From sequence record NC_019423.1: a stretch of DNA of 64,000 nucleotides. The stretch is one strand, 5' to 3'. The stretch is from Escherichia phage IME11. The notes below the pieces were generated by a model that was not told the origin of the DNA, made no database searches, and saw nothing but the letters and a program-made list of their open reading frames with translations. Below are positions 6,777 to 32,093 of the stretch, piece after piece. Position 1 is the first letter of the stretch. The number at the start of each line of letters is the position of its first letter. The position numbers and the translations under genes were made by a program.

Positions 6777-6792
6777 AATACTTCATACTAAT

Positions 6793-12800: not shown

Positions 12801-15800
12801 TGCTCTGGAATACGACCAGCGTGAGGGTGCTACTGATGACCTGTTACGTATTGGTGCTGAACAGATTGAACGTAATCTGCGTAACATTGCTCTGGGTGTA
12901 GATATTCGCCACAAGGTAATGAACCAGGTACAGACTACTGTTGACCAGATGGCTGCTGTAGGTGCTCCTTATGTGAACAACGGTAAAATTTCTCTGGAAG
13001 GTCTGACTGTAGACCAACAAGTAGCTAAGCTGAACGAACTGTTTGATGTTGAATTAAACAAGCGTCGTGATGCAGTACGTGCTGCTAAAGCAGAACCAGT
13101 GAAAGAAGTACCAGCAATGGAACAGGTTGGTCGTGTACTGAAGTCTGGTGTACGTCTACTGTCTAATACTGCTATTACTAAGTTGGCTAAAGAGATGACT
13201 CCAGAACAGGCTGCTGTACTGAAAGAAGTACAGAACTCCCTTGCTGCTAAAGACTACAAGGTTGTTTATGGCACTCCTTCTCAACTGGATGCCTACGCTA
13301 TTGAGAAGAACATTACTCGCCCAGCACCGGAAGATATTGAAGCTGCTGAAGCTGGTAATGCATACGGCTGGACTAACTTTGATGATAAGACCATCTACTT
13401 AGTTACTCCTTCCTTAGAGACTCTGGTTCATGAATTGGTACATGCTTCTACTTTTGAATCTGTACTGGCTCACTATGAAGGTACTCCTAATGAAGCAGTT
13501 CAGAATATTGAAGACCTGATGAACCAGTTCCGAACTCTGGATGTTAAGGATGAATCCCCGGCAGTACGTGAAGCATATGCTGATGCACTCAATACCATTA
13601 ATGGTCACTTGTCTAATGGCTTTATTGAACCAGCAATGGCTAAAGCTGCTGCACTGAATGAGTACATGGCATGGGGCTTAACCAACCGTGAACTGATTGG
13701 TAAGCAGAAGAAAACCACTGCACTTAAGGCCATGGTTCAGTCTGTGTATGAAGCAATCAAACGTCTGGTATTCGGACGTAAGAAAGCCCCTGCTAACGCA
13801 GATGATATGTTCTCTGGCTTACTGTTTAACTCTTCTGTAGTTATGCGTGGGCAGGCTCCTACTGCTGCTGTAGCCAAGGACACTACTCTGTTCCATAACA
13901 AAGCATATGGTGACAATACTCGTCTGGAAGAGCTAGGGAAGACCTTCGATAAACTGATTACTAACTACATTGGTTCAGAACCAGTACAACAAGTAATTCG
14001 TAAAGGTAAGTTCTCTGATGCAGTAGTGAATGCAACTAAAGTAACCCGTGATGTTCAGGCTCATGGCTTCACTATGAATATGCAGGAACAGCGTCTCTTT
14101 ACTAACATTGTTGCTGCACTGGCTACCGAAGCTGCTATTAGTCCAGCTGCTCTGGCTCGTGCACAAGAATACTATGCACACGTAACCAAGAACCTGACTG
14201 TTGAAGCGTTCATGACTGACCCGGATAGTACTAACCCTGCTGACCGTTACTACGCACAGCAGAAGTTCGATACCATCATGGGTGCTAACAACATTGAGTT
14301 TGATGCACAAGGTCGTTCTTCCTTACTGCCTACCTTTGTGGCACTGGCAATGGTAAGTGAAGATGTACGTAATGTGCTGGCTGACATTCCTGTTATGAAA
14401 GCAGATAAGCAATCCGGTAATACCGTTGATGCAATGCTGACTAATATCGGTACTGCTGCAATGGCTAGTCTGAATGCTCGTGTAGCAGGTGATACTAAAG
14501 CTACCAATGTACAAGAAGGTATGGATGCACTGGCTCAGACCATCATGCAGACCAGTCTTAATGCACAGTCATTCTATGATTCCGTCGCCACTCCTAGTGG
14601 TAATGCTATAGACCGTGCTAACCAGTATCTGGTGGACTCTATTGATGTACTGTCTACCCGTGCTTTAGAAGGTGCTCGTGAAGTTGCAGCTAATACCAAG
14701 AACCCGTTGGTTAAAGGTGCTGCTCATGCTGCACAACTGGTAGCTGCTATTGCTACAGAGAAGAATGGTGCAATCGTAGCTGAAGGTGTTATGGCTGCAA
14801 TGAACCAGGGTAAAGCATGGCAACCTTTCCACGACCTGGTTAATGACTTAACCGGACGTACTAAGAGCAATGCTTCTGTATATGATTTGATTAAAGCAGT
14901 TCGTGCACAGGTACAGGCTGACCGTCAACAGTTCCGTGAACACTTACCTACCACTATCGCATCCAAGTTCAGCCGTAAGCTGACTAATGATGAGTGGAAA
15001 GCAATGCATACCGGTATGGGTAAAACTGACTTGGCTGTCCTGCGTGACACTATGTCTTTGGCTGAAATTCGTGACCTGCTGACTGACCAGAAGATTGTTG
15101 ACCGTGAGGTGAATAAGCTGGAAGCAGATTTACAGAAACAAGCAGGACGTAACTGGCCTTTGATTAGCCGTAAATCTAAGCAACTGGCTCAGTACATGAT
15201 TAACGGTACAGTCGGTAGTAACCTGCTGCGTAATGCTACTGCAATTTCTCGTATGCTGGGTGAACGACAGGCTGCACGTTCTACCGTAGATGTGGCTCAA
15301 CTGGATAAGCTGATTACCTTGTATGCACTGGAAGCAATGAATAAGACTGACCGTGAGATGTTATCTTCACTGGCTCAGACAGAAATTGAAGGTATGGACT
15401 TTGCTACTTCTTATCTGGTTGGGCAGCGTAAAGATGAAATGGCTAAAGCCAAGTCTGATATGCGTGCAACCTTGAACCAGTACAAAGGACATATCCCCAG
15501 TGAAACTAAACAGGGTGTTAACCTGATTGTTGCTGAAGATAGTCAGTTTGCTGATTTGATTGAGAAGTCCTATGTACGTCTGGGTACTTATCAAGGTAGT
15601 TCTGCTAACCGTGGTCCAGCACGTAGCTACTACTTTGCACCAGTACAGGCACAGGCTCCATTCTCACAGGGTATATTACAGAACGTTCGCAATACTGCTG
15701 GTGGTGTGGACCTTGGTACAGGCTTTACGATGGGTTCCATGGTAGCAGGTCGTATCACTGACAAGCCTTCCGTAGACCGTATCACTAAAGCTCTGGCTCG

Positions 15801-17232
15801 TGGTGAACGTGGTAATGAACCACTGCTGCCTGTATATGATGACAAAGGGAATGTGGTTGCTTATGAGCAATCCATTGACCCTAACATGCTGAAGCACATT
15901 GAGGGTGAGAACCATCTTGCTCGTGCAATCGGTGTATGGCGTGGTCGTCAGGTAGAAGAGGCTAAGGCTCAGCGTTTCAACGATATGCTTATTGAGAACC
16001 TACATAGCATGTATGAGAACGACATTAAGATGTCTGCCTCTAATAAGTCCCAGTACGTTAACCTTCTTGGTTCTAAACTGGACCCAGTAACTGCCGATGC
16101 TCTTAAGCTGATGAATAGTGAAACTCGTCAGAAAGCAGAAAGCCTGTTTGGCCCGGGTGAGTTGTGGGTACGTCGTGATATGCTCAACGATGCTCTTGGT
16201 TATCGTGCAGCTTCTGTAGGGGATGCCTGGTCTGGTAATTCTCGTTGGTCCCCAGAAACACTGGATACCTTCAAGAAAGCTATGCTAGGTGTATTTGGCA
16301 ATCGTGCATATAAGTACACAATGGGTGGTGAGAACCTGGTTCAGAACTTAGTTAAAGAAGCTAAGACCCTGATTGTAGTTAAGTCAGTAGTCGTACCTGC
16401 AGTTAACTTCCTAGCTAACCTTTACCAGATGGTTGCTCGTGGTGTACCGGTTAAGAACATTGCTAAGAGCATTCCACAGAAGACTGCTGAGATTAACCAG
16501 TACCTGAAATCTCGTCTACGTCAGGTAGATGCAGAAGCAGAATTACGTGCAGCTACTAACCCGAACCAGATTCGTAAACTTAAGGCTGAGATTCAGTCCA
16601 TCTCTGATAGCCATAAGCGTTTAAGTATCTGGCCTCTGTTAGAAGCTGGTGAGTTCTCTTCAATTGCAGATGCTGGTATCGGACGTGATGACATCCTTAT
16701 TACTGAGGGTAAACTTCACGAATACATGGATAAGCTGGCTGATAAGCTACCTAAGTCTGTACGTAACGCAGGTCGTTATGCACTTATCACTAAGGATACT
16801 GCTCTCTTCCAGGGTATCCAGAAGACGGTTGAGTACTCTGACTTTATCGCTAAAGCAATCATCTATGATGAACTGACTCAGCGTAAAGGTAAGACTCGTG
16901 AGGAAGCACTGGGACGTGTAACGGAAGAGTTCATTAACTATGATCGTTTACCTGGTCGCTTCCGTGGGTATATGGAAAGCATTGGCTTAATGTGGTTCTA
17001 CAACTTTAAGATTCGTTCTGCAAAAGTTGCAGTGTCCATGATTCGTAATAACCCAGTACATGCTGCTATGGCTATGTTGGCTCCAACCCCTACCATGTTT
17101 GGTAATGTTGGTTTACCTATTCAGGACAACATCTTCAGCATTGCTGCACAGGGCAATCTCGGTTACTCCTTCGGTTTCGGTCAGGGCTTACGTGCCCATA
17201 ACCTGAACCCTTGGCTCAATCTTACTAACTAA
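6880..17232 (+). CDS. virion-encapsidated giant RNA polymerase (N4 vRNAP-like)
   Basis: ~3450-aa single ORF (track start 6862 is TTG; ATG at 6880 follows AGGAA). T7-like motif A YVEADGVTNGPIN (Asp codon 11446-11448), motif B RGIAKNPLTITIYGSG (~11770-11815), motif C KIFDGMNIG (Asp codon 12622-12624). The two Asp are 392 aa apart, the spacing I recall for N4 vRNAP. Confidence 0.9.
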   Translation: MSTFDRLAGFADSITNAKQVDVSTATSQKQAAQGQSPFQLTPENAYNLQTGRVGNLGTGAFDPGSLQADFTQASPLEIINKYGNEQGLQILNSRANAADVVRQDLSKQRTNSEAFGDTLSGVGLGVANTLGGIAALGTGLVNDNAGASIASGMDWLNEGVHNLQSDALNATRKVVQNQNQISAQENQKLYEEDIKNGESSLVASLSRIGRDAFDSVANTLDNGMAASDGLSEGVGSLFTGGPLIRGVSALGKVMVGGDKAVKGITLAAELGSRPAQVALSAGRVAAPAVAIGGMEAGGAYQQTASEIMKMSHQELASKSPVYRQHIADGLSPDEARRQTASETGITAAGLTAPVAAATGPLVSRFELNPLKVGSLAGAGSNMLRETVEEGIQSGFGQFAQNTAIKENVDASRDTLKGVGEQAGLGALYGFGSAGVAQAPGATVKAAGAAVGPTVRTTLAGASLVGNALAKVASPITNILVQRGEEVAKRNEQASPVSDATVNAAAQEATAQAEQAQATVQEAVDAMDISPEEKAAATQYAADLTQAMKFDPVELEQANPAIREAVSGSTNRVEAIQKMADLVNTAEDPNIQMEAAIQMYDNIMSMDSFINRDPGALANLEQGSPAANIVDQFSGLMANVQNTPKVLRAFRAIHSMIQEQAEAGKLKATEEANQAQANNIAMAADMSPEVLDADSVNMVLKHASEGKITLGNRQRAALQSAAAVLQGAREFDAKAEELGLRPQDIVSKQIKTDESRSNEGQYSALQHAKRIRSAYNSGNFDLASAYLDDFMKFAQHMQNKVGALNEHLISGNADKNKSVHYQALSPSREWVRSRTGLGVNPYDTKSVKFAQQVGLEAKTVADIANALATAYPELNVSHVKVTPLDSRLDKPAAQVVKEFRQGNLDAAQSQQTNEPVNQVDESPAPVQEATTTVQPKTKPVVENKSAPVKDTSSKPEEVTTTESETVDTALTNEDTTQEVAETKTEMETVFPVYNNDKTPSQFLKAFALPEEPKTRTIGSESPLTDVKQALSSAARFEAFTQKENNALTGDVMKRYQDLLGFGETLKSTLSDRLAKFLANKNVGKRFAEGTEANRWVGGKLLNIVEKDGDTFKFNDQLLETAVLAGLQWRLTATQNAAIKDMKDVAAITGVEVSLLPDGILADFENAQTLVEATNSLAQKIESYWGLNRNPNAPLGYTKGIPMAMATEILSSLIEMGEVKESMLDVSEIDPASNKTVGLYTIEKLDDNDAINNFPTAIEEAVLVEPEEKMYFGDDIPSVAQTQLRNPAVKNTPEQQAALKAEQATEFRVHMPMVNFYEALGRDNILELMGAGTLNPELLNVNTAKSLEGKNLSVSMAYDSLFGVINQVQEQENGLDTPIHYGYNMTRVGRMQMLGKNNPQSSKLVREAILPTFSTIDLSNENSQTFSDFQLGLAQALGIKVHNMSREAMSEKLTKALEGNLKPAVDMMVEFDKSGHLPTDAVDILKTSLGGDKSFVALMALMEYARYLNSNDRANFNTPLYVEADGVTNGPINAMVLMTGGKFTPDWIKNTAKGGLFFGKAGKTMNEHRSQDDSVDLYEASTNGLQQALGELRSTYRNNVPVMSQMSHLQKLMDLFIKDFNLNEDGTLDLKRGIAKNPLTITIYGSGARGIAGKMVSAITDTIYERFSDVLQARAADPSISPAMAMFGKEAASEADAQAMLDTFLTSMEALTGNVPVMRKGELSIQQAEGALTGKLDPQKFTVSGNALKNLQENMLHLFVEPMRTGIRNTVGEGLMHSTENLQKATQIQSLVLQDMFQQAVQAKLAEKEKDPTWKKGDFLTQKELNEIQESLSPLAPMIETGSQTFYIAGSENTDVANQVLATNLDDRMRVPMSIYAPSQAGVAGIPFMTIGTGDGMMMQTLSTMKGAPKNTLKIFDGMNIGINDITDASRKANEAVYTSWQGNPIKNVYDSFAKFMKNVDFSKLSDETKQAIAKSALEYDQREGATDDLLRIGAEQIERNLRNIALGVDIRHKVMNQVQTTVDQMAAVGAPYVNNGKISLEGLTVDQQVAKLNELFDVELNKRRDAVRAAKAEPVKEVPAMEQVGRVLKSGVRLLSNTAITKLAKEMTPEQAAVLKEVQNSLAAKDYKVVYGTPSQLDAYAIEKNITRPAPEDIEAAEAGNAYGWTNFDDKTIYLVTPSLETLVHELVHASTFESVLAHYEGTPNEAVQNIEDLMNQFRTLDVKDESPAVREAYADALNTINGHLSNGFIEPAMAKAAALNEYMAWGLTNRELIGKQKKTTALKAMVQSVYEAIKRLVFGRKKAPANADDMFSGLLFNSSVVMRGQAPTAAVAKDTTLFHNKAYGDNTRLEELGKTFDKLITNYIGSEPVQQVIRKGKFSDAVVNATKVTRDVQAHGFTMNMQEQRLFTNIVAALATEAAISPAALARAQEYYAHVTKNLTVEAFMTDPDSTNPADRYYAQQKFDTIMGANNIEFDAQGRSSLLPTFVALAMVSEDVRNVLADIPVMKADKQSGNTVDAMLTNIGTAAMASLNARVAGDTKATNVQEGMDALAQTIMQTSLNAQSFYDSVATPSGNAIDRANQYLVDSIDVLSTRALEGAREVAANTKNPLVKGAAHAAQLVAAIATEKNGAIVAEGVMAAMNQGKAWQPFHDLVNDLTGRTKSNASVYDLIKAVRAQVQADRQQFREHLPTTIASKFSRKLTNDEWKAMHTGMGKTDLAVLRDTMSLAEIRDLLTDQKIVDREVNKLEADLQKQAGRNWPLISRKSKQLAQYMINGTVGSNLLRNATAISRMLGERQAARSTVDVAQLDKLITLYALEAMNKTDREMLSSLAQTEIEGMDFATSYLVGQRKDEMAKAKSDMRATLNQYKGHIPSETKQGVNLIVAEDSQFADLIEKSYVRLGTYQGSSANRGPARSYYFAPVQAQAPFSQGILQNVRNTAGGVDLGTGFTMGSMVAGRITDKPSVDRITKALARGERGNEPLLPVYDDKGNVVAYEQSIDPNMLKHIEGENHLARAIGVWRGRQVEEAKAQRFNDMLIENLHSMYENDIKMSASNKSQYVNLLGSKLDPVTADALKLMNSETRQKAESLFGPGELWVRRDMLNDALGYRAASVGDAWSGNSRWSPETLDTFKKAMLGVFGNRAYKYTMGGENLVQNLVKEAKTLIVVKSVVVPAVNFLANLYQMVARGVPVKNIAKSIPQKTAEINQYLKSRLRQVDAEAELRAATNPNQIRKLKAEIQSISDSHKRLSIWPLLEAGEFSSIADAGIGRDDILITEGKLHEYMDKLADKLPKSVRNAGRYALITKDTALFQGIQKTVEYSDFIAKAIIYDELTQRKGKTREEALGRVTEEFINYDRLPGRFRGYMESIGLMWFYNFKIRSAKVAVSMIRNNPVHAAMAMLAPTPTMFGNVGLPIQDNIFSIAAQGNLGYSFGFGQGLRAHNLNPWLNLTN

Positions 17233-21547: not shown

Positions 21548-22102
21548 TTACGCCTTTAATAACTTAATGAGGTTCTGGAAAGCTGAGAGATTTACACCAG
21601 CATGTATTGCACCGATTGCATCTGCTAAGTGCTCATTCTTATTCAGAAGTTTACCCTTCTTATCAGTGAGCCAGTTGGCTTCAGGATAGATGGCATGAGC
21701 AGCACGAATCATCGTGTCTTTGGATGCAGTTTTATCACCGACCAGTGCAAGTTTGTTTTCAATTGGGGATACTTCAAAGATTGGACAACCCAATGCACGA
21801 AATGCACCTATTAATCCTACGCATACGCCATATGATTTCATACCGTTAGCAGACTGAGAGCCTACTGGTACTTCTACGAATACTGCTTTAGCAGATCGTA
21901 ACCATTCTTCACAACCAAGAAACAAATCGTGAGCGGCTTGTATATCTTTGGAGTTGGTTCGAACTTGTTTGTTGTGGTCAACTTCAGTTTGAACCAGTTT
22001 AAGTTCGACCTGCTCGAAGACGCCGGACTCAATGTCCAGCATCCCACGAGCTAAACCCCAATTGCGGAGACTAATGTCTGCACCGACAATTGGGATTTTC
22101 AT
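21548..22102 (-). CDS. RuvC-like Holliday junction resolvase
   Basis: 184 aa; N-terminal KIPIVGADIS, mid VFVEVP, C-terminal HLADAIGAIHAG match RuvC-family acidic catalytic positions. Confidence 0.6.
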   Translation of the reverse strand: MKIPIVGADISLRNWGLARGMLDIESGVFEQVELKLVQTEVDHNKQVRTNSKDIQAAHDLFLGCEEWLRSAKAVFVEVPVGSQSANGMKSYGVCVGLIGAFRALGCPIFEVSPIENKLALVGDKTASKDTMIRAAHAIYPEANWLTDKKGKLLNKNEHLADAIGAIHAGVNLSAFQNLIKLLKA

Positions 22103-22899
22103 TATTTCTTACCGAACAGTGATTTACCACCAGCAGGAGTAGTACCTGTGCCAGCACCTGGTTTAGGAGGCAATCCACCTTTACCATTACCACCGGCAGA
22201 ACTCTTAGTTTTATCACGAGTCTTGCCTTTGTTCTTCTCCAACCATGCTGCATGGAATACAGCCAGTTCTGGGGTCAGTTCTTTTTCAGCCTTCTCTGCT
22301 TCCTGAGCCTCAACGACTGTGACCAGCAGTTCCGGGTGAAACACTTTCTGAATCTCGTTTACTTCACGGGTTTCACCGGAGTCAACGTAACCGTTGTCAC
22401 CCTTGACCTGCTTAGCTTCCAGAACCTTTTCCAGAGCAAAGGTAACAGTCTGTCCAACCAGTTCAACCGGAACCATGACAGACTTATTAACTTCTGCTTT
22501 AGCGTCGAAATCGTAGACTTTAACAATCTTCTCTTCGAAATCTGCTTCAGGCAGTTCAGTACCAGTTGCCATCAGCATCATGTCATTAATGACAGTGTAG
22601 CCAGGCAGGAAGTACTCTTTACCGTTCTTCTCGTAAGTTGGCTTGTTGCCTTTAGCATTACCGGAAGTGAAGTACACCTGGGCACGGAACTCACCGGCAG
22701 GTACGCCATCAGAGTTCTTCAAGTTTTCAATAATTAACTGCATCCAGTCTGCACCAGAGTCAGCTTTACCTACGTAAGCTACTTTTACAGTACCGGTGTA
22801 GATATCGGATTCTTTTGCACCGAAGCCACCACCACCCAGGGAGTCTTTAACAGCTTCAACGTTTTTGGTTTTTTCTTTCAGATTACTGAACAATGACAT
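22102..22899 (-). CDS. putative single-stranded DNA-binding protein (N4 SSB-like by size and position)
   Basis: 265-aa ORF with Gly-rich N- and C-terminal tails, sited between recombination and resolvase genes; assignment is by synteny and size only. Confidence 0.4.
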   Translation of the reverse strand: MSLFSNLKEKTKNVEAVKDSLGGGGFGAKESDIYTGTVKVAYVGKADSGADWMQLIIENLKNSDGVPAGEFRAQVYFTSGNAKGNKPTYEKNGKEYFLPGYTVINDMMLMATGTELPEADFEEKIVKVYDFDAKAEVNKSVMVPVELVGQTVTFALEKVLEAKQVKGDNGYVDSGETREVNEIQKVFHPELLVTVVEAQEAEKAEKELTPELAVFHAAWLEKNKGKTRDKTKSSAGGNGKGGLPPKPGAGTGTTPAGGKSLFGKK

Positions 22900-22938: not shown

Positions 22939-23691
22939 TTAAGCGTAGTATTCAGCCAGATGGTCTAAGAGTTTCTGGGCATCGTTGTCGATATAAGTCT
23001 CGGACTTATCGAACATACCCATTGGGGAACGAAGTCGTTTGCCAACTGACTTCTTGGTTGGACGGGTCTGGAATACGTGCTTATACCCTAAGTCACGTTC
23101 TTCTTCCGTAATTTCAAGCATCTTGTTCCCATACTTCTCCAGTTCTTTAATGTCTACGCGTTCTGCGTAAACTACTGTAGAGAAGTAGGCTTCAAGTCCG
23201 TTATTCTTCAGGGAGCCTTTCACTGGGATGAATGTTTTAATCACACCAGCAGCTTCATCCAGTTCGTCTTTAGCATGTGCAGTAATGATTACTGGCTTAC
23301 CAAATTTAACAACTTTCTGTTGTAGCAGTACTTTAAAGAATTGTGCAAAGTCCCCCCAAGCCTTTTGCGTATTTGCAGAAGGCAGAACATACTGTGATTC
23401 CAGCATGTCCATCATGAAGGTTGCTGAGTCAATAATGATACCATCAACATCGTCTGCCATTTCTCCACCCGGAGATGCAACATCAAATGCTTCCCAGATT
23501 TGATATGGGTCTTCAATGTTATAAGTGTTGAACTTGTTACGGAAAGGCAGACGCTTACCTGCTTCAGTATTCAGATATAACCAGCGTTCCTGGTTCCGGA
23601 TGTTGCGCAGTGATGCTGATTTACCACTCGCTGAGAATCCTGCAATCAGGATTAGCTGAGTGTTCATATCATTGGAGATTTCTTCGGACAT
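22939..23691 (-). CDS. Sak4-like RecA-fold ATPase (AAA_24-like)
   Basis: Walker A GFSASGKSAS and Walker B IIIDSATFMMD in a 250-aa protein. Confidence 0.6.
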   Translation of the reverse strand: MSEEISNDMNTQLILIAGFSASGKSASLRNIRNQERWLYLNTEAGKRLPFRNKFNTYNIEDPYQIWEAFDVASPGGEMADDVDGIIIDSATFMMDMLESQYVLPSANTQKAWGDFAQFFKVLLQQKVVKFGKPVIITAHAKDELDEAAGVIKTFIPVKGSLKNNGLEAYFSTVVYAERVDIKELEKYGNKMLEITEEERDLGYKHVFQTRPTKKSVGKRLRSPMGMFDKSETYIDNDAQKLLDHLAEYYA

Positions 23692-23747: not shown

Positions 23748-25901
23748 TTATTTGCCAGCGAAGCGTTTAGCCACGGTGACCATTACGGTTGCATTCAATT
23801 CATCATCCGGCAACGGATTAGCCAGTTTCTTATTGAATGAGTAGACGGCTTGCTGTACTTGAGCAAAGTCCCAACCACTGTCTACTAATGCCAGTGCGTA
23901 TTTAATCATTTGATTATTACGATTACCGGAGGCAATACGACCAGCGAACCAACGCTCCAGATTATCCAACGACTGTACTTCCTTCATCTGGTTCTGGAAC
24001 TGCTCGTTCTTACTGGTACGAGGAATAAAGTCACGCACGTCCAACAGATTCGCATCAAGGTTGTAATGATAGGAACCAGTTTCACAGGACATCCACTTCT
24101 TGGCTCGTTGGTTAGCAGACTCATCCGTTTCGAATGGTAGCCAAGCCATAACGTTATTCATGAACTCTTTGTATTCCTCAGTGTCGAGGTGTAACTCATA
24201 GTTCATTGGAATAATTAGACGGAAGCGGTTCTCTTCATTAGAATGACGCTTAGTGGTATAGGTCATGAACTTATATTCCTTCATTAGTTCATGGCACGTA
24301 TGCAGTGGTACTCCACCATCACAATCAATAACAATCATGTTAAATCCTGGAATAACGTTCTCTTCAGAACGATGCCCATTCTTCATGTGATGGTTTACCC
24401 AGTGCATACCGGGAGCTTGGGTTAATACATGTAGCTGGTCAAACGGTACACGTTCACCAACATAGTCATAAGCAAAGCTATCACTATATGCCACCAGCAT
24501 CTCATTGGTGTCAGTCTCTTTCAGAGTCTCACCACGGAAGAACTCAATACCTTCATTGAAGGTCTTCTTAATAATGATGTGCTGTTTGTAACCCCATGCT
24601 GTAGCAAGAGTCATCATCTCATTACGAGCTGCATTACCACTCTTATAGAAAGGTAAAGACTCCAGTAAGTCAGCATGAGTTACTTCTTTACCTACGGAAG
24701 CAATGTACTTAGCCAGCTTCACATAAGCCTTCTCACGATTGAGGATTGTCTGGAATGCTGCCCCGGATTCCTCTACGAGCAGGATTGCTTGTTTAAGGTG
24801 AGTCATTTCAATGAATGAACTCTGGTCAACAAACGCCAGTGCACCTGCCAGCTTAAGAGCCTTGAAGTAACGGTGGGATATTTCAGCCTTACGAATTTCT
24901 TCGTGGTCAGCCATAGCCTCTGCTTGTTTCTCACAATCAATTTTGTAAGTAATCAGAGCAATACCCACTGCATCTTCCACAATCATCTTAAAGCCAAACA
25001 GGTTTGGGTCAGCCAAACTATGGAAGTGGTTAGCCCACTTACCAAGAGACTGTACGTTATCCTGCTTAATCAGGTTGCGGTAGATTTCTTCCGGGGTCAG
25101 CGTTGCATGTGCTCGTTTGTCTAAGTGCCCAATGGCAAACAGGCAGCGACGTGCATACCCTGTATCCAGGAAATCATAGAACTGGTCTTCAGTCTGACCA
25201 CCGTCCAGCAACTTACTTGGAGTACCAAATAACAGTAGGTTAGCGGGGGTCTTACCATCCAGTTCTTCGCCACGAACACTTTCAGCAGTGTTCTTGGTTA
25301 GTTTCTGCTTAACTTTCCCCTGGTCATACAACTCAAGGAACAGGTTAAGAACTTCAACGTTAGCAATGAGGTTGGAACCAATCTCATCAATCTGTAGGTT
25401 AATAGCGCCACAACCAGCCATAAGCAGTTTGTGACGAAGCTGTTTTACAGCAGGTGCTGTACCGGAGTCGAATGTGAATGGGAATGCCCCAGCACGTTTA
25501 TATTCTGCTTCAACTTTATCAAACTCTTCCTGCTGGTCAGTGCCCTGACGTGCAGAACGTTCGTTAGCAATCTTCCATAGACGGTCATTTGCAATGACGG
25601 GCATGGTGTCTTCCATAAAACGTTTACGGAAGCCAGTCATGAACCCGTCTTCAATGATATTTACTGAGTGACCTTTACCGAAACCAGATGTAGCCAACGC
25701 CATAGCGTAGATGTTTACCGGCAGGTCACCACGGTCTTTAGTTACGATGGTTGCACCCATGCAGGATGCCATTTTAGCCAAGAAGTAGGCCACTTCGACA
25801 CGGAAGAATCCCCGGTCATTATTCTGGGTTTTATTGCAGAGCACATCTACGATTTCTTCAATCGCTGGATGGTGCACTACTCCGGTAAGGTCAATACTCA
25901 T
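23748..25901 (-). CDS. putative DNA primase / replication initiation protein
   Basis: Track ORF to 25958 starts at TTG; ATG at 25901. Contains hhhDxD-type motif MIVIDCDGG and a C-terminal region reminiscent of primase C-terminal domains. Confidence 0.5.
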   Translation of the reverse strand: MSIDLTGVVHHPAIEEIVDVLCNKTQNNDRGFFRVEVAYFLAKMASCMGATIVTKDRGDLPVNIYAMALATSGFGKGHSVNIIEDGFMTGFRKRFMEDTMPVIANDRLWKIANERSARQGTDQQEEFDKVEAEYKRAGAFPFTFDSGTAPAVKQLRHKLLMAGCGAINLQIDEIGSNLIANVEVLNLFLELYDQGKVKQKLTKNTAESVRGEELDGKTPANLLLFGTPSKLLDGGQTEDQFYDFLDTGYARRCLFAIGHLDKRAHATLTPEEIYRNLIKQDNVQSLGKWANHFHSLADPNLFGFKMIVEDAVGIALITYKIDCEKQAEAMADHEEIRKAEISHRYFKALKLAGALAFVDQSSFIEMTHLKQAILLVEESGAAFQTILNREKAYVKLAKYIASVGKEVTHADLLESLPFYKSGNAARNEMMTLATAWGYKQHIIIKKTFNEGIEFFRGETLKETDTNEMLVAYSDSFAYDYVGERVPFDQLHVLTQAPGMHWVNHHMKNGHRSEENVIPGFNMIVIDCDGGVPLHTCHELMKEYKFMTYTTKRHSNEENRFRLIIPMNYELHLDTEEYKEFMNNVMAWLPFETDESANQRAKKWMSCETGSYHYNLDANLLDVRDFIPRTSKNEQFQNQMKEVQSLDNLERWFAGRIASGNRNNQMIKYALALVDSGWDFAQVQQAVYSFNKKLANPLPDDELNATVMVTVAKRFAGK

Positions 25902-26878
25902 GATGGAAAATATCTCTCTCTTTGTTTGCAAATGGACGCGACAGGGCAGTACAGACAACGCTTAACCTGCCCCTCCACGACCTTGATAGCACCCTTGCCA
26001 CCTTTTTCAGCCATGAAGATACGGGCAGATGACATATCGTCAAAGTTTTTAGTACTTCTGGCTCCAGGTACATCTACCTTAGAAGCATCAGAGAAGTATT
26101 TGAACTGTGGCTCTGTTCGCCACAACTCCTCGTCAGTACATTCAGGGATTTGCTCTTCAGGAGCATCCCAGTACTTCTCAATGAGGTGAATCTTCTCTTC
26201 TACCCAACGTTCAGTCTTCTCGACAGATAGCAACGGAATATCCTTATGCATAATACGATTAGCAGGATAATTCGGATTGCTATTAGCCATGTGTTTCATG
26301 AAGTCAGTGAAGATGTAGTTAATACGAATTACATCCTCGGTAATGATGTCGTTGTGAATCCAACGATACAAGCTACCTTGCATCTTGTGTTCATCATCAC
26401 GGGAACCAGCAACCCAGGAATAGGTTGAGGTAGACTTAAAGTCTTGCAACAGACCTTCTGTTACGATGTCGAACTTACCACCGATAGTCCAACCCTTAAC
26501 TATCTTGGTTCCACGTTGTTCAATGTAGATTGGAATAATGTCAGGGTTAGCATCAAAGTCTGCTTTGGTTGGGTTAATGACTACTGCATCAATTACTCGT
26601 TGAGGATAACCCAACTTCTTCAATGCAGTCTTATGACCTAGCTTCCAGGCTTTCTCGATAGAGTCATGTAAGCCAGTACCCATTGATGTGGAGACGAAAT
26701 CCATAACATCAATAGACTGGTCACTGAAATCTACACGATGTTTCATGACAATTTGCTTAAGAGGTTTAAGCAATGTAGTAGCAGACAGATACTTAGGATT
26801 GTCTACGTAATCATACTCATCATGCAATAGCCATACAGCCAGAGCCAGTGAGACATCATGGTTGTTGGTTATCTTCAT
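25898..26878 (-). CDS. PD-(D/E)XK nuclease, Cas4/RecB-like with C-terminal Cys cluster
   Basis: 326 aa; GGKFDIVTEGLLQDFKST fits the D...(D/E)xK core; C-terminal CLYCPVASIC (C-x2-C-x5-C) plus an N-terminal Cys suggest an Fe-S cluster. Confidence 0.5.
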   Translation of the reverse strand: MKITNNHDVSLALAVWLLHDEYDYVDNPKYLSATTLLKPLKQIVMKHRVDFSDQSIDVMDFVSTSMGTGLHDSIEKAWKLGHKTALKKLGYPQRVIDAVVINPTKADFDANPDIIPIYIEQRGTKIVKGWTIGGKFDIVTEGLLQDFKSTSTYSWVAGSRDDEHKMQGSLYRWIHNDIITEDVIRINYIFTDFMKHMANSNPNYPANRIMHKDIPLLSVEKTERWVEEKIHLIEKYWDAPEEQIPECTDEELWRTEPQFKYFSDASKVDVPGARSTKNFDDMSSARIFMAEKGGKGAIKVVEGQVKRCLYCPVASICKQRERYFPS

Positions 26879-27351
26879 CAGAAGGTAATCCTATAACGAT
26901 AAATATTTTCCCAATTAATGGACTCGAAAAGGAATCCTCCAGGAAAGCATGTGTATGTTTTACAATGGTCCTTGTACTCATACTCAATCTTCTTCCACTT
27001 ACGCATGAAGGAAGGTCTTTCATTACTGTAAACCCAATCGGTACAGGATTCTTCTTCCTTAACTGCTTCAGCACTAGCCTTAGAATCAATGAAAGCTTTA
27101 GCAAGTAGACGATTAGTGTAATGAACCAGCTTCTCACAGTCATACACTGTAGTGTTTCCTGGCTTACCATTACCCATACGGGCAGCAGCATTTCGCCATA
27201 GAGCTTTAAAGGCACAACCCTCATCGAAGGTCATGCCCAGTGCTTGGATAATATCCTCGCACTCTGCTTGATATGGCTCTTGCTCTTTCCGTTGAGGGTG
27301 CTTAACTGGTACTACATACCAGTTATTCAATCCACCGGAGAGCTTAGTCAT
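26878..27351 (-). CDS. hypothetical protein (possibly DUF3310-like)
   Basis: 157-aa ORF, ATGA overlap with neighbour; segment ALWRNAAARMGNGKPGNTTVYDCEKLVHY. Confidence 0.4.
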   Translation of the reverse strand: MTKLSGGLNNWYVVPVKHPQRKEQEPYQAECEDIIQALGMTFDEGCAFKALWRNAAARMGNGKPGNTTVYDCEKLVHYTNRLLAKAFIDSKASAEAVKEEESCTDWVYSNERPSFMRKWKKIEYEYKDHCKTYTCFPGGFLFESINWENIYRYRITF

Positions 27352-27656
27352 TATTCCCCCTTGGGAACCATGTTTGCTTGGAACTCTGGTTCAGACATTA
27401 GGCCCAGGTTGTTAATAGACAGATAAACAATGTCTTTCAAATCAACCGAGGTGTCGAAACGCTGGTCCAGACTAATCTTCAGAGAGTGATTGGCACGAGC
27501 CAAATCTTTATAGGTCACATGAGGTTCGTCAGTGAGCAACATTGTGTTCATAGTAAGCAGGGAACCGTCATCCACCTTAGGAAGCTGGAAGATTACCTGT
27601 GCTGCTATCATCCAATGATATTTTCTGACGACGGTTTCTTTAGTACTTTTAGTCAT
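27351..27656 (-). CDS. hypothetical protein
   Basis: 101-aa ORF translationally coupled between DNA polymerase and downstream gene. Confidence 0.4.
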   Translation of the reverse strand: MTKSTKETVVRKYHWMIAAQVIFQLPKVDDGSLLTMNTMLLTDEPHVTYKDLARANHSLKISLDQRFDTSVDLKDIVYLSINNLGLMSEPEFQANMVPKGE

Positions 27657-30232
27657 GCGAATGCCTTTTGAATTGTTTGATGAACTTCTTCTGGGGTAGC
27701 GTGATTTGGAATTTCAATCTCGTTAGCCCACGTTGGGTAGAACAAGGATAGTTCCCCACCCAAACCAACTTCTGGATGAGCAATATCAGGATGGTCTTGC
27801 CAGTTAACAGCCTCAACCAAGTGCTTGTTCGTGTACTGCAAGGTATCCATGTTGTCACGAATCATGAAGTACTGGGCATCATGAATGTGAATACTAGGAC
27901 GTATATCTAATCTGAACTCACTGGCTCTGACTTTACGCATAAACTCGGAACCCGCACGGTTATTCAGTAGACACCAGCTTTGCCCTAAAGCATTACCAGC
28001 GGTTCTGCCTTCAGCTTCTGCTTCATACGGAGTCTTACATGTCCCACGTAAAACCTGAGCCAGTAAAGGAGTACGCACTCTCAAACCGAATGCGGCAGTA
28101 ACATAACCAGTTTTGGCAGCTTCGTCTAGCTTAGCCTGAACCCACCTGTCACTAACTACATAGAGGTCGTGATAACGTTTCTCTGTAGTCTTAGCCTTCT
28201 CTTCAGAGAAGCCACAGTTTTTCATTAAGCCCATATACGTACCACCATAGGTAAGCAAGAAGGTTGGAGCCTTCGAGTCACTACGCAATGATTTGTACTT
28301 ATGCTGAATGGAGTTAATGGATTCTACCGTGTCTTCAATGTCTGGCATCTGCTCACCAAAGTAAGCATATGCACGGAGACTGTGCCCATCATAGCCATCG
28401 GTATACACCTTAAGCTTCTGTGGGTCTTTAGTAGTCAGTGCAGAGATTCTGTCTTCCAGCGAGGCGAAATCCAAGCCGCAAAATACCCAGCCAGGGGCTG
28501 CTTCGAAACATTTCTTAATCTTCTTGGCATATTTAGAGCCGGATGGAATTGTTTGTAGATTTGGCTCTGAAGCCGATAGCCTACCGGAGACTGTGCCTCC
28601 CAGATTGAGGTTGCCGAATAGGTAGTGCCAACCATCCGGTCCCGGTTGGGCATTCCTGAAAGCTGGTATAAAGCTAGTGATAATCTTATCCACGAGCTTA
28701 TAGTCGATAAGTGCATTGAGCAGTTCCTTAACATCTTCACTCTGCGTATGTGTACGCAGTGCTTTAATAGTGTCACCGTCAGTAGCAGGTTGCTTGCTCT
28801 TAGTAAGACCAAGAACTGGTAAGCCAATATAATCAAATAACAGTTTTTGTAATTGTGGACCAGAGTTTGGATTAAACTCGATGTCACAATCAGCAAGTGT
28901 TACCTGCTTCTTCTTCAACTTAGCATTCTTATCATCTACCCATTCCTGACGAAGCATCAGGGTGAAATTCTTCATGAGCTTAGATTCACGAATAGTTTTC
29001 AGAGCCTGGTTCCTGTCAGTTTCCATCTCTTTAGCTACTTGGTTAACGGTTTCCATATTCATGGGCATACCGGTTAACTGCATCTGAATAATGTCTTCAC
29101 AGGCTGGTTTAAAGATGTTGTTGTAAACATCCAGTTGGTCATCAGCAATGAGAGTATCCCAGTGCTTCTCATAGGTGTACCAAGTACACAAACCATCAAT
29201 GAGGTTGTAGCGTAACAGCTGTTCATTAGGAATAAGACGGATGTCTTTAATATCATCCTGAGCATAGTTACCAGCATACTCCTGAGCCTGGTCTTTCAGA
29301 CTAAGGTGATTACCAGCACAGCTGTTAGTAGCCAGGTAGGTGATTAACTTAGTACAGTCCCAATTACGTAGCATGATATCCATGCCATGCAGTAAGCCTT
29401 CTGTATCAATCAGGTTATCCATGAATAACTGATAGATGAGTACGTACACGTCATAGCTAATGTTGTGATACATCTGCCGTTGAGTGTACTTAATAAAGAA
29501 CTCACGTAGAAGATTTCGAACAACATCATTTCTATTGATACGCCCGTATGGTGCTTCTGTAGCTCCAGGAATCGGCTCGTAGTCCACATTAAAGGCTATG
29601 CCTTGTGTCTTACTCCAACAGAATGTAATTGTTCCTATACCGGCGTTATAGTGCTTTAAACCGAATGCTTCGATGTCTATAGCCAGTGGCTTATTCATCT
29701 CAAGCAGCTGGTCTAGCCAGGCTTTAATCTTCTCTGGGGTATCCGGGTAAGCTTCAAACTCAATGATTCCTTGTCCTGGTTCAGCATACTGTCCACGAAT
29801 GTGGTTAAGTAATGCATCCATACCTTGAGCAATCTTGGATTTCACTACAGGTGGGTCATAAAAGACCTGCCTGTAGCTAGGTGCATAGATAACCTTTTGA
29901 TTACCCCATACTGAATCACAAACATAGCCAAGGTTAGCCTCTGCTTTAGCTTCTTTAGTCAGTATTTTGAAGTAATCAGAATCGGTACAGATAATGTACT
30001 GAGTTTCTGCATCATCCAGTACTTGCTGCAATTCCTGCTGTATGAACTCCTTAATCTCCCTTGCAGGAGTCTTCTTCTTGCCTGGGGCAGAATGAAGTTC
30101 GATGAAGATGAAATCTTCCATGCTTAGGTCATTAGGCAGCAGGTAGGTTTTAATCATCTCCTCCCTTCGGATTTGATGACCGAGGATAGCAATAGGATAC
30201 TTACCCGTATCTTGAGAGGTGATGTAACGCAT
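27653..30232 (-). CDS. family-A DNA polymerase with 3'-5' exonuclease domain
   Basis: 859 aa; exo motif LAIDIEAFG; Pol motif A CGLDFASLEDR, motif B KAPTFLLTYGGTYMG, motif C IHIHDAQYF; ATG with AAGGT RBS. Confidence 0.85.
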   Translation of the reverse strand: MRYITSQDTGKYPIAILGHQIRREEMIKTYLLPNDLSMEDFIFIELHSAPGKKKTPAREIKEFIQQELQQVLDDAETQYIICTDSDYFKILTKEAKAEANLGYVCDSVWGNQKVIYAPSYRQVFYDPPVVKSKIAQGMDALLNHIRGQYAEPGQGIIEFEAYPDTPEKIKAWLDQLLEMNKPLAIDIEAFGLKHYNAGIGTITFCWSKTQGIAFNVDYEPIPGATEAPYGRINRNDVVRNLLREFFIKYTQRQMYHNISYDVYVLIYQLFMDNLIDTEGLLHGMDIMLRNWDCTKLITYLATNSCAGNHLSLKDQAQEYAGNYAQDDIKDIRLIPNEQLLRYNLIDGLCTWYTYEKHWDTLIADDQLDVYNNIFKPACEDIIQMQLTGMPMNMETVNQVAKEMETDRNQALKTIRESKLMKNFTLMLRQEWVDDKNAKLKKKQVTLADCDIEFNPNSGPQLQKLLFDYIGLPVLGLTKSKQPATDGDTIKALRTHTQSEDVKELLNALIDYKLVDKIITSFIPAFRNAQPGPDGWHYLFGNLNLGGTVSGRLSASEPNLQTIPSGSKYAKKIKKCFEAAPGWVFCGLDFASLEDRISALTTKDPQKLKVYTDGYDGHSLRAYAYFGEQMPDIEDTVESINSIQHKYKSLRSDSKAPTFLLTYGGTYMGLMKNCGFSEEKAKTTEKRYHDLYVVSDRWVQAKLDEAAKTGYVTAAFGLRVRTPLLAQVLRGTCKTPYEAEAEGRTAGNALGQSWCLLNNRAGSEFMRKVRASEFRLDIRPSIHIHDAQYFMIRDNMDTLQYTNKHLVEAVNWQDHPDIAHPEVGLGGELSLFYPTWANEIEIPNHATPEEVHQTIQKAFA

Positions 30233-30782: not shown

Positions 30783-32093
30783 TTAGAAAGTTAGACCACC
30801 ATACTTACTGGCAAGATTGCCGTAGAACACTACTCGCTTACGGGCACGAGACACAGCGACGTAAAGCAGACGGGCAACCATATCAGGTTGGCGACAGCTT
30901 GAGAGGTCATCTGCATCAATGAAGATTGTGTCGTAAGTAGAGCCTTGTGATTTATGGACAGTACATGCATGAGTAGCACGTAGGTCTGGAATGGTTTCTT
31001 TAAGACGGAAGTATGGTTCCCAGTTCTTCTCTTTACCTAGCCACTTAACCAAACGGTTGAAGTATTCCGGGTCAGTAGGTACTGGAACTTCACTTACGAT
31101 ACCACCGTAACCAAGGTCCAGAGTACTATCACGAACTTCCAGTTCCAGGTCACCTGTAACCTTAATCATGCGAGTACTACTGTCCTGGTCAATGAGTTTT
31201 ACGTCTTGCTCGATAGACAGACGGTCATCCACCCCCAAACGAACAGCAGAGTTAGAAACTAACTGTTCACCAATGGAGTATTCACCTACGTAGCCATTGG
31301 CTTCACGAATGTAGTTATTGTAATTAATAACCTGGTCATTTGTGTAAGCAACAATACGGCTGTTGGTAGGTTGAGTGAAGTGACTGAGAACCAGTTTCTC
31401 CATCTCTTCCCCCTGTACCCAGTCAATAATGCCTGGAATACATTTAATAGGCAGGAAGCCTGTCTTACCTTCCACCGTATCACGCAATTGCTGGTGCAAT
31501 GCTTTGAGTTCCGGTGCATCGGTACGCATCTGTTCAGTCAGATAGTGTGTTGGGATATTACCTGCATACACTGGAGACTTATTCTCTTTAACAGGTAGAA
31601 GCTGAGAAGCATCTCCTACGAATACCAGTTTACACTGGTGAGTACCTTCACGAGCATACTTAAGTAACTGACGGTCAATCATGGATGCTTCATCTACGAA
31701 GATAATTTTGTTCTTCTTAATAGTGAATGATTTAGATGGCACTACGTTAGCCTCACCAGTCTTAAAGTCATTCTTAACAATCAGACCCTGGAAGGAATGA
31801 TAGGTAGACGTTGGACGACCTGTAGCTTGAGCCAGAACTTCAGCAGCTTTGTTCGTGGTCGCAGTCATAACAACTTCGTTATACAGAGGCTTGGTTCCCA
31901 TTAGAGAACAAGTTTCCATATATGCAGGCATAGTGTCATCAATGAGGTGCGACATCAGGAATGTCTTACCAGTACCTCCTGGGCCTGAAATTCCAAATTC
32001 GGTAGCATTAGGGTCGAGCAGGAAGTCGAAGAACTCCTTCGCAACCGCTTCTTGCCCCTTGTTCAGTGGGGCTTTGGTAGGTTTGGAAAACAT
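30783..32093 (-). CDS. SF1 DNA helicase (Dda/RecD-like)
   Basis: Walker A GPGGTGKT, Walker B FVDEASM, motif VI-like TVHKSQGSTYD. Confidence 0.8.
   Translation of the reverse strand: MFSKPTKAPLNKGQEAVAKEFFDFLLDPNATEFGISGPGGTGKTFLMSHLIDDTMPAYMETCSLMGTKPLYNEVVMTATTNKAAEVLAQATGRPTSTYHSFQGLIVKNDFKTGEANVVPSKSFTIKKNKIIFVDEASMIDRQLLKYAREGTHQCKLVFVGDASQLLPVKENKSPVYAGNIPTHYLTEQMRTDAPELKALHQQLRDTVEGKTGFLPIKCIPGIIDWVQGEEMEKLVLSHFTQPTNSRIVAYTNDQVINYNNYIREANGYVGEYSIGEQLVSNSAVRLGVDDRLSIEQDVKLIDQDSSTRMIKVTGDLELEVRDSTLDLGYGGIVSEVPVPTDPEYFNRLVKWLGKEKNWEPYFRLKETIPDLRATHACTVHKSQGSTYDTIFIDADDLSSCRQPDMVARLLYVAVSRARKRVVFYGNLASKYGGLTF

Follow-up and report, generated by a model that had tools for sequence, protein, structure and literature searches.

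The window analysed here is a stretch of 64,000 nucleotides from Escherichia phage IME11 (NC_019423.1), a Gamaleyavirus, that is, an N4-like coliphage. The open reading frame singled out in a preliminary description of this DNA is real: in the ORF list and its translation it runs on the minus strand from ATG to TGA, at exactly the limits given in Table 1, and encodes 326 amino acids. Its N4 ortholog is gp42, and it belongs to the orthologous group PHROG 2139: the ‘exonuclease’ profile of that group matches residues 1-325 (E 4e-152); N4 gp42 and the IME11 protein share 70% amino-acid identity over the full length; the gene region is 96% identical in nucleotides to Gamaleyavirus genomes that annotate exonuclease/gp42 there; and the gene order gp39-gp40-gp41-gp42-gp43-gp44-gp45 is identical in IME11, N4 and St11Ph5. 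The N4 gene occupies the same slot, between gp41 and the primase gene gp43, and its product agrees with the IME11 protein in motifs and in all four cysteines; there is no difference of substance, and the two are the same gene.

gp42 lies within one co-directional block of overlapping genes, together with those for polymerase, primase, a Sak4-like annealase, SSB and a RuvC-like resolvase (Table 1). Read from the sequence, the stop of gp41 overlaps the ATG of gp42 (TGATG) and the ATG of gp43 overlaps the stop of gp42 (ATGA), the latter in agreement with the St11Ph5 annotation. Homologs are present in 472 phage records, mostly of N4-like phages, with Vibrio, Pseudomonas, Escherichia, Klebsiella, Erwinia, Achromobacter, Rhizobium and others as hosts; in the few records inspected, the gene is located in the replication block. 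In Enterobacter phage SonariX (a 248 kb ‘partial genome’) the neighbors of the homolog are all annotated as hypothetical, and the context is uninformative. Two close relatives have apparent insertions in gp42 that are not in-gene introns: in one, an HNH gene is inserted upstream of gp42; in the other, gp42 is split or duplicated.

Papers list N4 gp42 merely as ‘unknown’, ‘exonuclease’ or ‘PD-(D/E)XK nuclease’. The literature searched yielded no biochemistry or structure for the family, no comment on its cysteine cluster or on Fe-S or Cas4 likeness, and no assignment to gp42 of the classical N4-coded 5′-3′ exonuclease. That enzyme was reportedly purified in 1986 by Guinta et al. (J Biol Chem).

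Table 1. Position of gp42, its motifs and its neighbors in the window
Feature	Residues	Coordinates	Strand	Basis
gp42 ortholog, complete gene, 326 aa plus TGA stop		25898..26878	-	ORF list, translation
N-terminal motif Y-L-S-A-T-T-L-L-K-P-L-K-Q-I-V-M, counterpart of Cas4 V-T-D-L-V-R-C-P-R-R	30-45	26744..26791	-	Profile alignments
Motif I, G67-x3-H71-x3-E75, on long helix 58-88 (RecB/Cas4-type)	67-75	26654..26680	-	Conservation, Cas4 4ic1 alignment
PD-(D/E)XK core, D137 (G-K-F-D-I-V) and D146-F-K148 (L-Q-D-F-K)	137-148	26435..26470	-	Conservation, predicted strands
QxxxY motif of RecB-family nucleases, Q167-G-S-L-Y171	167-171	26366..26380	-	Conservation, Cas4 4ic1 alignment
C247 in P-E-C247-T-D-E-E-L-W (I-P-E-C-T-D-E-E-L-W)	245-253	26120..26146	-	Conservation
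Insert of ~55 aa, tentatively DUF2188-like	254-307	25958..26119	-	Secondary structure, distant-branch Pfam matches
Triad C308-L-Y-C311-P-V-A-S-I-C317 (C-x2-C-x5-C), then conserved Q319	308-317	25928..25957	-	Conservation
gp46, RuvC-like Holliday-junction resolvase		21548..22102	-	PHROG 159 E 2e-42
gp45, SSB of the N4 type (a protein that binds single-stranded DNA)		22102..22899	-	PHROG 743 E 1e-89
gp44, Sak4-like ssDNA-annealing protein (RecA-core ATPase), putative recombination partner		22939..23691	-	PHROG 124 E 3e-49, Pfam AAA_24
gp43, DNA primase (N4 ‘DNS protein’)		23748..25901	-	PHROG 2135 E 0, Pfam PriCT_1
gp41, 157 aa, upstream of gp42, no assigned function		26878..27351	-	PHROG 9919
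gp39, family-A DNA polymerase, same replication block		27653..30232	-	ORF list, St11Ph5 and N4 synteny
gp37, SF1B Dda/RecD/Pif1-like helicase, same block		30783..32093	-	PHROG 325 E 3e-136, Pfam AAA_30, UvrD_C_2, PIF1

The nuclease core

The residues expected of a RecB/Cas4-type nuclease are present and nearly all invariant in an alignment of the gp42 family (151 sequences; 150 cluster representatives at 32-52% identity). D137, D146 and K148, like Q167 and Y171, occur in 151/151 sequences; G67 and H71 of motif I are found in 150/151 and E75 in 145/151. The preliminary description had picked out a core FDIV...QDFK and assigned the protein to this nuclease type; F-D137-I-V and Q-D146-F-K148 are indeed there, followed by Q167-G-S-L-Y171, and the invariance of the catalytic residues bears the assignment out. 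Motif I aligns with the segment G-D-I-L-H-L-G-L-E of the Cas4 structure 4ic1, and the QxxxY motif with M-Q-L-Q-I-Y of the same protein.

The fold agrees. An AlphaFold model (pLDDT 88) puts the core catalytic residues on predicted beta-strands 130-135, 138-140 and 143-150; a Foldseek search with this model returned Cas4 4ic1 as the top match, with Exo5 and Dna2 among the structural neighbors, which is consistent with PD-(D/E)XK. Placement by sequence HMM is weak: Pfam PDDEXK_1 (PF12705) matches the query at 16.7 bits (E 0.007), under the cut-off of 22, and 37/73 family members at E <= 1 (best 3.7e-7). A distant branch, made up of gp62 of Leptospira phage LE4 and 120 proteins from its homolog search (121 in all), gives matches to PDDEXK_1 in 41 of 46 members (best 1.5e-9). 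PDB sequence searches with the single gp42 protein and with two gp42-family profiles returned nothing meaningful; only the LE4-like branch profile reached Cas4 4ic1. Judged by its motifs and its modelled structure, gp42 falls among the PD-(D/E)XK nucleases, in the structural class of RecB, Cas4, Exo5 and Dna2; its activity is predicted, as are its catalytic residues D137, D146, K148, Q167 and Y171.

An unusually placed cysteine

The translation contains exactly four cysteines, at 247, 308, 311 and 317. As residues 1-246 have none, and C247 lies ~75 residues past the QxxxY motif, all four are C-terminal to the catalytic core. C247 is found in 150/151 family sequences, the single exception being a gap; C308, C311 and C317 are each found in 147/151, the remainder being gaps in fragments. 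The whole set is invariant among 24 homologs that share 53-87% identity, in the 150 cluster representatives (truncated fragments aside) and in 121/121 members of the distant branch, at about 23-27% identity; 60/142 full-length representatives have no further cysteine. Across these alignments the conservation of the four is beyond chance. With the cysteines conserved and the fold in line with PD-(D/E)XK, neither of the two refuting outcomes named in the preliminary description arose.

The preliminary description had joined an N-terminal cysteine to the C-terminal C-x2-C-x5-C, in the arrangement of the Cas4/AddB-type nucleases. The triad of this arrangement stands; the N-terminal cysteine does not exist, and the fourth ligand would be C247. 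Where the Cas4 cysteine ought to fall can be followed through profile alignments. The LE4-like branch profile aligns to 4ic1 (E 0.014; hhalign E 4e-5) with the Cas4 cysteine opposite P/S; hhalign of gp42 with that branch carries the Cas4 first-Cys column to K38, and direct hhalign of the gp42 family with 4ic1 carries it to P39. None of the 272 aligned sequences (151 gp42-family and 121 distant-branch) has a cysteine in the Cas4 first-Cys columns. By these alignments the Cas4 first-Cys site is K38/P39 in gp42, and C247 is a candidate for the relocated first cysteine ligand.

The four invariant cysteines probably hold a metal cluster, which we infer to be most likely Fe-S in preference to zinc. 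The AlphaFold model is confident around them (pLDDT 80-90). The C-x2-C-x5-C at the extreme C-terminus has exactly the spacing of Fe-S nucleases, and it aligns with the C-terminal end of the PDDEXK_1 profile of Pfam (positions about 204-247); zinc sites, moreover, are usually paired CxxC knuckles, not an isolated cysteine plus a triad. All this counts against a structural zinc in the same nuclease, pinning an inserted C-terminal mini-domain to the core, an arrangement that we consider rather unlikely, although it has points of its own: the canonical N-terminal Fe-S ligand is missing; the four ligands fall within one segment of ~70 residues, as in many zinc modules; and in the distant branch the first two cysteines of the triad drift apart, to C-x3-C and C-x4-C, a drift that we do not know of in Cas4, AddB or Dna2. 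We know of no Fe-S nuclease that shares the gp42 layout; because it is unlike that of every one familiar to us, transfer of the ‘Fe-S’ label is less safe here than usual.

The insert between C247 and the triad is predicted to fold as beta(258-262)-beta(277-279)-alpha(282-291)-beta(297-301), with pLDDT 80-90. Pfam DUF2188 matches this segment in 31/46 distant-branch members (best E 3.1e-5), and the insert regions of gp42 and of the distant branch align with each other (profile-profile, hhalign). In the gp42 branch itself DUF2188 matches 3/73 members, weakly, and 0/10 of the isolated C-terminal modules; the label thus draws its support from the distant branch and the profile-profile alignment, and the gp42 insert can tentatively be called DUF2188-like.

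The enzymes with ‘iron-staple’ domains (AddB, AdnB, Dna2 and Exonuclease 5) invite comparison. gp42, at 326 aa, differs in standing alone, unfused to any helicase. Their cluster, as reportedly described by Yeeles et al. in 2009, ties the C-terminus of the nuclease domain to the N-terminal part of that domain. With all of its ligands C-terminal to the core, a gp42 cluster would instead close a local loop. If an Fe-S cluster is present, it may stabilize the C-terminal module and aid the grip on DNA ends, by analogy with AddB, Cas4 and Exo5. As a Cas4/Exo5-class nuclease with a conserved four-Cys site, gp42 offers a natural experiment in how far Fe-S ‘iron-staple’ domains put up with a ligand that has moved and with a domain inserted into the loop of the cluster.

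A bolder reading, possible but on the doubtful side, makes the family a distinct and previously undescribed class. The ancestral N-terminal ligand would have been lost (K38/P39 here, P/S in the distant branch) and replaced by the cysteine of P-x-C-T-x-E-E-x-W after the core, and the cluster would clamp a DUF2188-like beta-beta-alpha mini-domain instead of stapling the N- and C-termini. If so, binding of DNA ends or of a partner could fall to the mini-domain, as an element that depends on redox state or on the cluster; it might dock the annealase, the SSB or the SF1B helicase, to form a split resection machine like Dna2 or AddAB; and the family would offer the first functional handle on DUF2188. 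Apart from the one unusually placed cysteine, gp42 is ordinary, and the outcome for its annotation is mostly confirmatory.

Likeness to Cas4 and the CRISPR question

CRISPR-associated Cas4 (SSO0001, PDB 4ic1; Pfam Cas_Cas4/DUF83) and gp42 have much in common: the N-terminal S/T-x-T-x-L...P motif, the G-x3-H-x3-E helix, the D...D/E-x-K core, QxxxY and the C-terminal C-x2-C-x5-C. The differences are equally plain. Identity is only 15-19%, and no Cas4 HMM is significant; the first cysteine of Cas4 gives way to K38/P39, with the new cysteine after the core instead; and gp42 has ~55 extra residues between C247 and the triad and ~40 extra (76-115) after the motif I helix.

The searches with Cas4 models were negative: Pfam Cas_Cas4 (PF01930) matches neither the query nor any of the 73 family members, and for the query there is no match to PADLOC Cas4 and no Cas4 or other usable match in NCBIfam. 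The PADLOC Cas4 model touches the distant LE4 homolog (E 2e-5), in the core region only. No cas genes lie near gp42, where the neighbors are polymerase, primase, annealase, SSB, resolvase and helicase, and the same is true in N4 and St11Ph5. On these three counts (models, N-terminal cysteine, context) Cas4 proper is not supported as an identity for gp42; of the ‘Cas4-like’ label given earlier, a RecB/Cas4-type nuclease survives, while membership of Cas4 itself finds no support. A practical consequence is caution against annotating gp42 as a CRISPR-related ‘Cas4’.

It had also been suggested that the protein might interfere with host CRISPR adaptation. No evidence for this was found: the gene occurs throughout N4-like phages, in the replication module, with no cas neighbors. 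To our knowledge, moreover, Cas4 plays no part in the type I-E and I-F CRISPR-Cas systems of E. coli. A viral Cas4 acting against host spacer acquisition, or hijacking it, would accord with the closest solved structure being a CRISPR-associated Cas4 and with the weak similarity to PHROG 1706 (‘CRISPR/Cas system associated’, E 1.6e-11). In Campylobacter, a phage-borne Cas4-like protein is reported to have a link with the acquisition of spacers (PMC4283603). For gp42 we find such a role scarcely credible, since the Cas4 models of Pfam, NCBIfam and PADLOC fail to match, the defining N-terminal cysteine is absent, the 472 records with homologs are mostly of N4-like phages, with the gene in the replication block in the few inspected, and the genes around it serve replication and recombination.

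End resection or fork processing

A guide to function is the company that the family keeps in unrelated phages. In IME11 the Sak4-like gp44 is two genes downstream; in Leptospira phage LE4 the homolog follows two genes after a RecT-like annealase gene; in two types of metagenomic phage contig it shares an operon with an ERF annealase, with RusA adjacent. Taken with the RuvC-like resolvase of IME11, these contexts mean that one nuclease family is found with annealases of three unrelated families and with resolvases of two. The lambda Exo-Beta and RecE-RecT pairs show the same pattern of linkage between nuclease and annealase. Such neighbors (annealase, SSB and resolvase), here and in the distant homologs, point to a nuclease that resects ends for recombination and replication, not to CRISPR interference; the recombination or end-processing role that the preliminary description had offered as one option fits this context well. 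We consider it probable that gp42 is an N4-type metal-dependent PD-(D/E)XK exonuclease, with a cysteine cluster most likely of the Fe-S kind, that resects ends for recombination and replication, a reading that builds on the identity of the gene, its fold class, the conserved residues, the unusual cysteine layout and the linkage to recombination genes, all of them shown here, and in which activity, polarity, metal and role in vivo are inferred.

The course of events might be as follows. gp42 would load at the end of a DNA molecule (a genome terminus carrying terminal repeats, or a replication intermediate that has broken) and degrade the 5′-ended strand to leave a 3′ single-stranded tail; the phage SSB, gp45, would coat the tail; Sak4-like gp44 would pair it with complementary DNA, giving concatemers and recombination-dependent replication; and the RuvC-like resolvase gp46 would remove the branches. 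The 5′-to-3′ polarity is borrowed from relatives, some of which (Dna2, Exo5 and some Cas4) are bidirectional or are endonucleases.

Another possibility is that gp42 acts mainly at the replication fork, in the manner of Dna2 or Exo5, to remove RNA primers or 5′ flaps and so offset a polymerase with no 5′-3′ exonuclease domain. N4 replication needs the 5′-3′ exonuclease of host Pol I, which would already cover primer removal; and the companions of the family in distant phages are annealases (RecT, ERF) and resolvases, not a polymerase. Both points make a mainly fork-bound enzyme unlikely, even though Exo5 and Dna2 are among the structural neighbors, gp42 lies between the polymerase and primase genes and is translationally coupled to the latter, and a Dda/Pif1-like helicase is encoded in the same block. 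On this account gp37 might take part as well, although its casting as the helicase partner of the gp42 nuclease is speculative. The phage polymerase does lack the domain in question, as described for N4 DNA polymerase (PMC2784036). Roles at the fork and in recombination are not mutually exclusive.

Its recognition as a nuclease of the Cas4/Exo5 class makes gp42 a concrete candidate for the end-resection step in the recombination-dependent replication of N4-type phages; the N4-like phages, its main carriers, include candidates for phage therapy. The genomic logic is one known from lambda Exo, RecE and further ‘exo’ partners of single-strand annealing proteins in phages: for the gp42 family, a nuclease gene is linked to those for annealase (Sak4-like, RecT or ERF), SSB and resolvase. 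The proteins themselves differ: lambda Exo and RecE come from the YqaJ and RecE branches of the superfamily and have no cysteine cluster, whereas gp42 has its set of four; in both sequence and structure they resemble gp42 less than Cas4 or Exo5 does.

The gp42 gene and its neighbors

The gp42 ORF is a real gene, and a well-known one, already annotated in N4-like phages. Its DNA is 95-96% identical to that of Gamaleyavirus genomes (G7C/St11Ph5-like, N4-like coliphages of the family Schitoviridae). The St11Ph5 counterpart, annotated 'exonuclease, gp42', lies between gp41 and gp43 ('DNS protein'/primase) and has the DNA polymerase gp39 upstream of it. The order is the same in phage N4, whose gp42, 70% identical, is labeled 'exonuclease' in RefSeq. 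PHROG 2139 ('exonuclease') covers the full length of the protein (E 4e-152). Full-length homologs occur by tblastn in 472 phage records, nearly all N4-like, with hosts that include Vibrio, Pseudomonas, Escherichia, Klebsiella, Erwinia, Achromobacter, Rhizobium and others. Genome papers speak of 'N4 gp42-like' proteins, whose function was given as unknown in 2009 and in subsequent papers as 'exonuclease' or 'PD-(D/E)XK nuclease domain protein'.

The gp42 ATG overlaps the stop codon of gp41 (TGATG, 26876-26880), and its own TGA shares bases with the start codon of the 717-aa downstream gene gp43 (ATGA); gp42 is thus part of a tightly packed, co-directional gene block, and the overlaps suggest that gp41, gp42 and gp43 are translationally coupled. 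The gp42 start codon is fixed by its N-terminus, M-K-I-T-N-N, which is kept even in very distant homologs.

Genes of the block that holds gp42
Gene	Coordinates	Strand	Description
gp37			Dda/Pif1-like SF1B helicase
gp39			family-A DNA polymerase
gp41	26878-27351	minus	157 aa; PHROG 9919; upstream of gp42
gp42	25898-26878	minus	ATG start, 326 aa, TGA stop (ORF list, translation)
gp43			primase
gp44			Sak4-like annealing protein
gp45			N4-type SSB
gp46			RuvC-like resolvase

Some annotations in the window call for comment. The mechanical ORF list starts gp43 at a TTG inside gp42 (25958, minus strand); the gene almost certainly begins instead with the ATG at 25901-25899, at the gp42 stop, as annotated in St11Ph5 and N4. 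The first ~85 residues of gp41 match a domain that longer PHROG families, among them one labeled 3'-phosphatase/5'-polynucleotide kinase, also carry at the C-terminal end; the short protein is annotated as polynucleotide kinase in some relatives, which looks like over-annotation from the shared small domain. Size, and synteny with St11Ph5 and N4, identify a single ORF of 3456 aa at 6862-17232 (plus strand) as gp50, the giant virion-encapsidated RNA polymerase typical of N4-like phages.

Predicted nuclease fold and putative cysteine ligands

The preliminary description saw a Cas4-like PD-(D/E)XK nuclease with a cysteine cluster. The fold is borne out by an AlphaFold2 model (24-sequence alignment; mean pLDDT 88, pTM 0.77, no segment below 50), which together with its structural neighbors predicts a PD-(D/E)XK domain of the RecB/Cas4 type. 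Foldseek against the PDB places Cas4 SSO0001 (4ic1) first (E 2e-7), followed by Exo5, RecE, AdnAB, RecB, MGME1 and lambda Exo. Structural neighbors were scored as follows: 4ic1, 12.4 (185/202 residues aligned); Exo5, 10.7; a Cas4-Cas1 fusion, 10.0; Dna2, 9.0; AdnAB, 8.9 and 8.7; MGME1, 8.5; RecE, 8.4; Pcal_0546 Cas4, 6.9; AddB, 6.7. In a viral structure library the only full-length match was the homolog of an N4-like Delftia phage (TM 0.86), followed by Cas4-like nucleases from viruses of archaea and from uncultured phages (TM 0.4-0.6).

The translation contains the core motifs as described, F-D-I-V (D137) and Q-D-F-K (D146 and K148), along with a QxxxY motif (Q167-G-S-L-Y171). The cysteine arrangement is confirmed in part: the C-terminal C-x2-C-x5-C is present (C308, C311, C317), but the supposed N-terminal cysteine is absent. 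The protein has exactly four, and the fourth, C247 (in I-P-E-C-T-D-E-E-L-W), follows the nuclease core instead of preceding it.

A profile from 24 homologs, searched against 1.8 billion cluster representatives, gave 3982 matches at E <= 0.001, 465 of them at E <= 1e-30; the query was aligned with the best 150 (32-52% identical to it). All 151 sequences have E120, D137, D146, K148, Q167 and Y171, and 150 have G67 and H71. C247 is found in 150, and C308, C311 and C317 in 147 each, every exception being a gap in a truncated entry; the cysteines, whose variation among homologs was to count against the proposal, are thus clearly conserved. No other column is dominated by cysteine; two have it in a minority (~12/151), and 60 of 142 full-length proteins have no cysteine beyond the four.

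By sequence models, gp42 is not a member of the Cas4 family. Its sole Pfam match, PDDEXK_1, is sub-threshold (16.7 bits; cut-off 22). Among 73 diverse family members, 37 match PDDEXK_1 and none matches Cas_Cas4; the NCBIfam and PADLOC models gave no match for the protein of the window. The ligand layout departs from that of Cas4 as well.

The layout can be traced through a distant branch, typified by gp62 of Leptospira phage LE4, that is ~23-27% identical to gp42 and joined to its family by hhalign at 100% probability; the sample was LE4 gp62 with the best 120 of 249 database matches. The branch shares a P-x-C-T-x-E-E-x-W motif with gp42 and has the pattern C216 ... C282-x3/4-C286-x5-C292. Its profile reaches 4ic1 by sequence (hmmsearch E 0.014; hhalign E 4e-5), in an alignment that pairs S-V-T-x-L, G-x3-H-x3-E, the catalytic D, D/E-x-K and QxxxY, and sets Cas4 'V-T-D-L-V-R-C-P-R-R' opposite 'v-t-e-l-i-s-P-P-R-i'. 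The column of the first Cas4 cysteine, transferred to gp42 in this way, is K38; the direct, weaker hhalign of the gp42 family (E 0.003) gives P39. Across columns 30-41, which include both, no cysteine occupies a ligand-equivalent position in the 151 or the 121 sequences. The family-wide pattern is C-x(50-65)-C-x(2-4)-C-x5-C. From these alignments it appears that the first ligand, which in Cas4 lies in the N-terminal segment, has moved to a post-core position, whereas the C-terminal triad is canonical.

The branch has other peculiarities. Its proteins (~290-300 aa; 6001-6909 in LE4, locus L002; 5001-5885 in L004, L007 and L008) come mostly from metagenomic phage contigs; the triad begins C-x3-C or C-x4-C in place of C-x2-C; a fifth, fairly conserved cysteine lies in a core strand (89/121); DUF2188 matches are frequent, and RecT or ERF annealases and RusA are linked to it.

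What the four cysteines hold can be argued two ways. A putative Fe-S cluster is fairly probable: triad spacing and C-terminal position are those of Fe-S nucleases, the structural neighbors are Fe-S enzymes, and the nearest solved relatives carry such clusters. A putative structural zinc site would instead accord with loss of the canonical first ligand, with the placement of all four ligands within ~70 residues, and with the variable first triad spacing of the LE4 branch (x2, x3 or x4).

Between C247 and the triad, residues 254-307 are predicted to form a beta-beta-alpha-beta unit (pLDDT 80-90). Pfam DUF2188 matches exactly this segment in 31/46 LE4-branch members (best E 3.1e-5); in the gp42 branch it matches weakly in 3/73 members and not at all in ten isolated C-terminal modules, so 'DUF2188-like' is a tentative name for the gp42 insert. 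DUF2188 itself, a domain to which no function is assigned, is reported in putative defense operons.

The finding, then, is real, and the original interpretation is right at its core: a Cas4-like PD-(D/E)XK nuclease with a conserved cysteine cluster and a likely role in recombination or end processing. Its novelty is modest and lies in the non-canonical topology of the ligands and in a mini-domain inserted in the cluster loop, each common to a wide phage family.

Proposed roles: recombination partner or CRISPR antagonist

A recombination or end-processing role, one of two proposed, is likely from the neighbor genes in the window and from distant homologs. In Leptospira phage LE4 a RecT-like annealase gene lies two genes upstream of the nuclease; metagenomic phage contigs of two kinds have the nuclease as the first gene of an operon that includes an ERF annealase, adjoining RusA and a primase-helicase. 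One nuclease family is found with annealases of three unrelated families and with resolvases of two, likewise unrelated. Such company marks the 'exo' partner in phage recombination modules, of which lambda Exo-Beta and RecE-RecT are examples. Most likely gp42 acts in 5'-strand resection of DNA ends, for which we infer polarity, substrate preference and metal identity. Resection would leave 3' tails for SSB to coat and for annealing, a supply on which both the formation of concatemers and recombination-dependent replication would draw. Dna2/Exo5-type fork processing can reasonably be put forward as a second function, or as an alternative one, because the phage polymerase lacks a 5'-3' exonuclease domain (PMC2784036).

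The other proposal, interference with CRISPR adaptation, finds no support: the gene lacks cas context, and no Cas4 model matches it. It is found in N4-like phages of many hosts, and Cas4 is not known to serve in the CRISPR types of E. coli; both points speak against the proposal.

Variants in relatives

In several close relatives, though not in the window, an HNH homing-endonuclease gene immediately adjoins gp42. Escherichia phage 24-32N (L010, 801-2344) has it between gp41 and gp42, and upstream of it the 5' end of gp42 appears to be duplicated as a short copy; the junction looks like a homing hot-spot. In Escherichia phage UE-S5b (L011, 801-1930) the gp42 gene is ~150 bp longer and annotated as two overlapping ORFs; the second, labeled 'UvrD/REP helicase', is clearly the mis-annotated C-terminal part of the nuclease, and the split may reflect real duplication, frameshift or assembly error. 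Enterobacter phage SonariX (L009, PQ898399) is a 248-kb 'partial genome' record without taxonomy, every gene annotated as hypothetical. At 4989-10594 it has successive N4-like ORFs that agree in length with nuclease, primase, annealase and SSB; the record may have arisen by chimeric or mixed assembly and not represent a jumbo phage with this module.
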